DNA of 13,444 bases from Escherichia coli (GTDB lineage: Bacteria > Pseudomonadota > Gammaproteobacteria > Enterobacterales > Enterobacteriaceae). The position numbers and the translations under genes are program-made. The DNA is taken from the NCBI RefSeq assembly GCF_003334815.1, contig NZ_QOWO01000057.1. One strand, written 5' to 3'. How positions within the stretch are numbered: position 1 is the first letter of the stretch; the number at the start of each line of letters is the position of its first letter. Below, one piece after another: positions 1,575-1,963 of the stretch. The notes beneath the pieces were generated by a model. The model had not been told where the DNA came from and made no database searches. It worked only from the letters and a program-made list of their open reading frames with translations.

Positions 1575-1963
1575 TGCGCCAATCACGTCAGGCTGTTTTA
1601 CCTGAAATTTCAGGCAATAAAACGTCATCGCTGCGTAAATCAATATGTAGCGATCTCCTCACTCTTTTTAATTCTCCTCATTCGGCATTACCGTCATTAC
1701 TTGTTTCAGGCATGCCCGAGTGGCAAGTGCATAACCAGAGCGACAAACATCTCCAGAGCTGGTATTGCCGTCAGCTGCGTTCTGCACTGTTATTTCATGA
1801 GCCACGGATTGCGGCGTTGCAGGTCAATCTGAAAGAAGCGTACAGCCACACGCTGGCGATCAGCCTTGAGATAATGCTGTACCACGACGATGAACCGCTA
1901 ACGTTTGATCTGGTCTGGGATAATGGCGGTTGGCGTAGTGCGACCCTCGAGAATGTCAGCTAA
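1571..1963 (+). CDS. iraD: Anti-adaptor protein IraD (inhibits RssB-mediated RpoS degradation); phage gp25/GPW baseplate-like fold family
   Basis: Translation [23 protein letters not shown]...[10 protein letters not shown], 130 aa from the ATG at 1571; the track ORF begins 3 codons earlier at a GTG. Stop TAA at 1961-1963. Confidence 0.9.

Follow-up and report, generated by a model that had tools for sequence, protein, structure and literature searches.

The convergent iraD/hypT overlap of Escherichia coli as a probable scar of GimA loss

The E. coli reference genome contains 663 overlapping adjacent gene pairs, of which 75 are convergent (PMC4161906). Among 370 convergent operons, 276 (75%) gave transcripts with complementary 3' ends that overlap, by a mean of 286 nt (PMC4161252). 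Control by antisense pairing of overlapping 3' ends has a precedent in E. coli in the mscL/arfA pair (PMC10070815), and hairpin-dependent collision termination has been described at convergent pairs (bioRxiv 10.1101/2022.10.23.513370). The site studied here has also been described. According to Homeier et al. (2010; PMC2878320), the GimA locus sits between yjiD (iraD) and yjiE (hypT) and occurs in three patterns, GimA-positive, GimA remnant, and GimA-negative, with K-12 MG1655 classed as GimA-negative. In that paper, GimA is poorer in G+C than the chromosome and was at first designated a genomic island; its flanks carry neither mobility genes nor tRNA, and the authors judged it to be ancestral and lost by reductive evolution.

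In the window, the 13,444-nt stretch of E. coli DNA analyzed here, iraD and hypT converge and share their last 8 nt. We read this overlap as the GimA-negative empty-site configuration, a structural by-product of GimA loss for which no dedicated cross-regulation is needed, and we give this reading a probability of roughly 0.65. The junction is the GimA locus, already described, which the first-pass annotation of the window missed. What is added here is limited to the reading of the overlap as a GimA deletion scar and to a palindrome at the junction.

The junction and its states across Escherichia

The first-pass annotation had reported an 8-nt convergent overlap of the iraD and hypT 3' ends, and this was confirmed by the sequence, the ORF list, and the RefSeq annotation of several genomes (Table 1). 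Two genuine genes on opposite strands share nucleotides at their 3' coding ends, within the segment order yjiC - ytiD - idlP - iraD >< hypT - iadA - yjiG - yjiH. On the + strand iraD ends in ...GAG AAT GTC AGC TAA, and on the − strand hypT ends in ...CTT AGC TGA. The ORF list entries were 1562..1963 (+) and 1956..2867 (−), and the true iraD ATG is at 1571. The identical overlap was found in the RefSeq records of K-12 MG1655 (iraD 4556993..4557385, hypT complement 4557378..4558289), of a strain sharing 99.9% identity with the window, of an O157:H7 strain, and of a chicken isolate. An annotation artefact was ruled out, because both stops are unambiguous and annotated alike in several genomes. 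The iraD/hypT overlap is already known, as it is present in the reference annotation.

Table 1. Features at and around the iraD/hypT junction (positions in the window; K-12 rows refer to the equivalent K-12 sequence).
Feature	Position	Strand	Details
idlP, iraD leader peptide uORF	1491..1574	+	stop overlaps the iraD start (ATGA); from sequence, annotated at the equivalent place in K-12 and in a near-identical strain
iraD, RssB anti-adaptor	1571..1963	+	130 aa, GPW/gp25 fold; stop TAA 1961-1963; from sequence, ORF list, and RefSeq
hypT (yjiE/qseD), LysR-type hypochlorite regulator	1956..2867	−	303 aa; stop TGA, complement of TCA 1956-1958
Stretch common to both genes, TCAGCTAA	1956..1963		8 nt, both stop codons inside
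AATG, match to the GimA right flank	1952..1955		GCAG/AATAATG/TCAGC in GimA-positive strains; from BLAST and flank sequences
Imperfect palindrome centered on the overlap	1931..1994		left arm, iraD tail; right arm, hypT tail; loop, both stops
Palindrome, window 1930-1995	1930..1995	+	MFE −22.8 kcal/mol, z −3.4
Palindrome, window 1930-1995	1930..1995	−	MFE −26.3 kcal/mol, z −2.9
Palindrome, K-12 75-mer		+	MFE −36.8 kcal/mol, z −4.76
Palindrome, K-12 75-mer		−	MFE −33.4 kcal/mol, z −3.09
Perfect inverted repeat inside hypT	2046..2078		11-bp arms (2046-2056 / 2068-2078), 11-nt loop; ~85 nt past the iraD stop
Candidate hypT promoter, sigma-70-like, in the iadA-hypT spacer	2900..2927	−	TTGTCA-16-TAGAAT; consensus match only

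Two observations concern hypT apart from its 3' end. In O157:H7 and in the UPEC strain NU14 (7881-8735) the gene is annotated with 855 nt (285 codons, the stop counted), compared with 912 nt (303 aa) here; EHEC is reported to have a short form of QseD. In the iadA-hypT spacer, a perfect inverted repeat of 11 bp (GTCAGCCGCCC / GGGCGGCTGAC, 2881-2891 / 2915-2925) overlaps the sole sigma-70-like promoter match (2927-2900, − strand). This repeat could mark where the iadA transcript ends, or form a structure in the hypT leader.

Three states of the site were observed in E. coli. State A, the 8-nt overlap, was present in K-12, O157, and the window. State B (E2348/69, ERP001) has the order iraD, hairpin, truncated 'PEP-binding protein' pseudogene, and hypT, with the two genes ~0.43 kb apart. 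State C (NU14, NC101) has iraD, a hairpin, ptsP/dhaL/dhaK ... ibeA, nhaC, a hairpin, and hypT, and extends over ~20 kb. The contiguous GimA-negative junction (70 nt) occurred in 4,877 of 5,426 complete E. coli genomes (~90%). A 436-nt GimA-proximal spacer probe matched 512 of the 5,426, which carry the remnant or the full GimA; in these 512 genomes a hairpin followed each stop and the genes did not overlap. The window showed the GimA-negative allele, with the two genes adjacent, no GimA-derived sequence between them, and a junction that matched the outer flanks of GimA.

Other Escherichia showed further arrangements. E. whittamii had a 21-nt overlap in a different frame and an IraD of 134 aa, and Escherichia sp. 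E1V33 had a 426-nt spacer with a hairpin and a gene fragment. An intact 793-aa PTS enzyme I-like gene directly followed iraD in E. albertii, where hypT was not found within ~3 kb of sequence downstream of iraD. In two further lineages hypT was deleted or degraded: one showed a precise deletion from ~20 nt inside the hypT 3' end through to the 5' UTR, and in the other hypT was degraded. The iraD-hypT site is a structural hot spot, and the overlap arrangement is not conserved, the spacing being ~0.43 kb in the remnant strains and E1V33 and ~20 kb in GimA-positive strains. As separate observations, strain C9 carried an IS1 between iraD and hypT, and some genomes either lacked iraD or had it adjoining kptA.

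In GimA-positive strains the right flank reads ...GTTCTGCAG/AATAATG/TCAGCTAAGCAC; hypT ends 7 nt after ...CTGCAG/AATAATG, and a hairpin lies 36 nt further downstream. The window reads ...CTC GAG/AAT G/TC AGC TAA, and its GAG/AATG/TCAGCTAA matched this flank. BLAST homology of the GimA-positive strain NC101 to the window began exactly at 1952, position 27 of the query, and the empty-site junction was therefore placed between 1951 and 1952. The right flank AATG/TCAGCTAAG was identical in the window, NU14, and NC101. On the left, GimA-positive iraD ends in ...ATG CCG CAG/TAA ATG ACG GG, followed by the hairpin AACGCGATACG...CGTATCGCGTT. In these strains and in E. albertii IraD has 127 aa (...WHRTMPQ) and ends at CCGCAG/TAA, followed by a stable hairpin and ptnI. 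On this side the iraD alleles differ by 22%, which permits only a loose alignment of the flank. GimA is bracketed by an imperfect direct repeat of 10-11 nt, GCAGTAAATG / GCAGAATAATG, and the junction 1951/1952 lies inside this repeat. In the remnant form, ptnI ...TTCTGCAG/TAAGTCC was joined to the right-end copy of an 8-bp repeat, TTCTGCAG; on its sequence, this form reads unambiguously as a deletion product with a truncated ptnI.

In the proposed mechanism, a 20.3-kb GimA segment would have been lost by recombination within the short imperfect repeat. The loss would have removed the stop codon of iraD together with both 3' hairpins, and iraD would then have read through AAT GTC AGC to the first in-frame TAA, in the last codons of hypT. 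IraD would have grown in this way from 127 aa to 130 aa (...LENVS), the extension being made of 4 nt of flank and the last 8 nt of hypT. The overlap-encoded residues look dispensable, because the RssB-IraD crystal structure (construct residues 17-130, built 18-124; PMC6546054) leaves IraD residues 125-130 unmodelled, as disordered, and the HypT C-terminus is allele-dependent (EIVLS or EIEPG). If read correctly, iraD/hypT would be a clean, datable case of the birth of a convergent overlap, in which a stop codon and both 3' hairpins disappear in one large deletion.

Transcript ends and the junction palindrome

The first-pass annotation had also stated that the two transcripts must end inside each other's coding sequence. 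This claim is structurally sound. The intrinsic-terminator scan detected no terminator-like site in 1200-3200 on either strand, and since each stop lies in the last codons of the partner gene, each mRNA must end antisense to its partner. As a consequence of GimA loss, both mRNAs would run antisense into the neighboring gene, and their ends would probably be formed by Rho-dependent termination of untranslated RNA and/or by trimming back to the junction palindrome. The C/G ratio downstream of both stops was near 1 (1.0-1.4), so no clear Rho-loading region is predicted.

The hairpins absent from the GimA-negative state were stable where present. In GimA-positive and remnant strains, the hairpin 10 nt after the iraD stop showed energies of −21.8 kcal/mol on one strand and −22.4 kcal/mol on the other (z about −3.7), and the hairpin 36 nt after hypT showed −21.0 and −22.4 kcal/mol (z about −4.5), with an overall z range of −3.7 to −4.6. 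We call them hairpins and not terminators, because they failed the strict U-tract rule.

Published 3'-end data were silent in the places searched. The Rho table of the Adams 2021 Term-seq study was empty from 4555483 to 4575164, the supplements of that study had no iraD/hypT entry, the SMRT-Cappable-seq supplements had no iraD or hypT entry, and the Lovett-lab iraD preprint gave nothing on 3' ends. No Rfam family was found anywhere in the window.

The GimA-negative junction carries a structure of its own, an imperfect palindrome built from the tails of the two genes (Table 1). No U-tract was present on either strand, the hairpin being followed by AGAAGCGUUC on the + strand and AACCGCCAUU on the − strand, and the palindrome is accordingly not an intrinsic (Rho-independent) terminator. 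It does lie in the region common to both convergent units, as a hairpin of a collision-type bidirectional terminator would. One possibility is that the palindrome is a functional 3' element common to both genes, which replaces the lost hairpins and acts as a bidirectional collision-type pause and/or protects the 3' ends after Rho termination and exonuclease trimming. Such a role is tenable but unlikely. The hairpin is strong and centered exactly on the overlap (z of −4.76 in K-12 and −3.4 in the window), and it ranked with the most stable of the 75-nt windows across the 5-kb K-12 locus. It was absent (z about 0) from the E. whittamii junction and from the hypT ends of GimA-positive and remnant strains. 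The K-12 allele, which is the strongest, is also modal, with 100% identity in 2,664 genomes. A simple in-silico deletion product folded at only −17 kcal/mol, compared with −36.8 kcal/mol for the K-12 palindrome; the palindrome would thus need extra remodelling or selection, and this strength beyond the deletion product hints at some function.

Several features of the palindrome tell against a functional element. Its left arm is translated and is polymorphic (GCTGGAGA, GCTTGAGA, CCTCGAGA), the changes being uncompensated in the right arm, which was invariant in all sequences fetched. Neither side has a U-tract, and both genes are presumably weakly expressed. The Term-seq tables searched (Adams 2021) list no 3' ends at this locus. 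The collision model applies best to highly expressed pairs (bioRxiv 10.1101/2022.10.23.513370).

The inverted repeat at 2046-2078 was considered as an overlap-specific iraD terminator and ruled out, because it is conserved in GimA-positive and remnant alleles and in other species. Its arms were conserved in 9 of the 9 hypT alleles fetched, with one G-U-compatible change, and the loop showed several synonymous changes. It may form a conserved hairpin, in RNA or DNA, that has nothing to do with the overlap.

Direction of the change at the GimA site

Across iraD-ptnI-dhaL, E. albertii was colinear with the GimA-positive strain NU14 at 87% identity, which supports the GimA-positive arrangement as the older state. 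The overlap state is probably derived, because E. albertii carries GimA adjoining iraD. Loss is thus the probable direction, as judged from the outgroup and the remnant rather than from proof. The E. whittamii junction reads ...GGAGTT/TCAGCCAGG..., and the stop arises within hypT, as CTTTAG. The overlap seems to have arisen at least twice, because this species has a different breakpoint and frame. GimA-negative and GimA-positive iraD alleles showed ~78% nucleotide identity, and alignable homology ended 28-37 nt before the stops. None of the extant GimA-positive alleles is the direct parent of the GimA-negative iraD, and the left breakpoint is fuzzy.

The opposite course, an insertion of GimA into an older, ancestral overlap of the two genes in the B2/E. 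albertii lineages, is decidedly improbable. It would agree with the low G+C content of GimA and its original designation as a genomic island (PMC2878320), and it would turn the imperfect 10-11-nt direct repeat around GimA into a target-site duplication. However, an insertion would need to supply iraD with a stop and a tail anew, and GimA already adjoins iraD in E. albertii. The remnant form proves that deletions occur at this site. The lack of mobility genes and tRNA in the flanks also speaks against insertion, and the authors of the same source favour an ancestral GimA lost by reduction. Loss of GimA is the reading we prefer.

Some observations on the iraD family were made alongside. E. coli has two very divergent iraD haplotypes (~78% nucleotide identity; GimA-positive record 11359-12005 compared with K-12). 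The GimA-positive haplotype lacks yjiC/ytiC/ytiD upstream of iraD and keeps an idlP-like uORF (MEYEHQPSGVRQPGQDTDATKRQECAK, then a stop) that overlaps the iraD start and is unannotated in NU14. The searches run found no iraD outside Escherichia. The nearest non-Escherichia homologues (Citrobacter, ~52% identity) are genuine tssE genes in complete T6SS clusters (tssB, tssC, hcp, tssE, tssF, tssG, clpV), and they were ruled out as a gene-order outgroup for this reason. iraD looks like an orphan tssE/gp25 derivative from sequence comparison; PF04965 (Pfam) was present on IraD homologues, and the gp25 fold of IraD has been noted before (PMC6546054). Two records outside the genus, a 605-bp contig of 'Bacillus coahuilensis' (NZ_ABFU01000118.1) encoding a 97% identical IraD and an 'Acinetobacter baumannii' record with a partial IraD, almost certainly represent E. 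coli contamination of those assemblies.

Regulatory coupling and comparison with known systems

The first-pass annotation had proposed that convergent transcription could couple the two genes. That iraD and hypT cross-regulate each other by interference or RNase III-sensitive antisense pairing, and so link RpoS stabilisation to the hypochlorite response, is very improbable. In favour of it, the two transcripts must share complementary sequence across the overlap at the minimum, and probably across much more given the lack of a terminator, and mscL/arfA offers a precedent. Against it, the arrangement varies both among E. coli strains and among Escherichia species, with 0.4-20 kb separating the genes or with hypT absent; 3' ends overlap at 75% of convergent operons with no known function (PMC4161252); the literature searched contained no paper linking iraD and hypT; and the Term-seq and SMRT-Cappable-seq supplements searched listed no antisense or 3'-end feature at the locus. 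The natural polymorphism argues against a conserved regulatory design of the overlap.

A narrower version is more speculative still, and we regard it as a long shot. Here the palindrome, evolved after GimA loss or produced by template switching, would serve both genes as a bidirectional stop or 3'-stabiliser, and hypT transcription and the induction of iraD in stationary phase or by DNA damage would affect each other in GimA-negative strains only. If this were true, GimA status would rewire the cross-talk between RpoS and the hypochlorite response. The natural GimA-positive, remnant, and GimA-negative alleles are ready controls for testing the effect of the overlap on IraD/RpoS or HypT output.

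As it stands, the overlap matters little, since it is in the reference annotation, of a common kind, and at a described polymorphic locus. An 8-nt overlap is ordinary, no more than chance or normal genome architecture gives, and it adds little beyond what most convergent pairs show already.

Among experimentally proven cases, mscL/arfA (PMC10070815) comes nearest to the coupling idea. Like iraD/hypT, it is a tail-to-tail, stress-related pair in Enterobacteriaceae, and its coding sequences are overlapping, proximal, or distal depending on the taxon. Experiments there demonstrated reciprocal regulation and RNase III processing; for iraD/hypT such regulation is hypothetical.

The palindrome resembles the overlapping bidirectional terminators of Ju et al. 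2019, as relayed in bioRxiv 10.1101/2022.10.23.513370, in being a non-canonical hairpin in the region common to two convergent units that reads the same on both strands. Those elements lie between gene pairs and work best with high expression. The predicted iraD/hypT hairpin is built of two coding tails, and its genes are presumably weakly expressed.

The published GimA patterns (PMC2878320) have the same flanking genes and the same three forms as those found here. The window corresponds to the GimA-negative form, as in K-12 MG1655, and the GimA remnant of that work is a 3' fragment of ptnI/pptE adjoining iraD. In the passages of the paper that were consulted there is no remark on the 8-nt overlap, on an IraD tail encoded by the flank and hypT, or on the junction palindrome. 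Convergent overlaps that arise by loss of a stop codon (PMC4161906) follow the same course as that proposed for iraD, a gene extending to the next in-frame stop inside its neighbor. The iraD/hypT event differs from these generic cases in that it can be traced to one particular large deletion, which still segregates.
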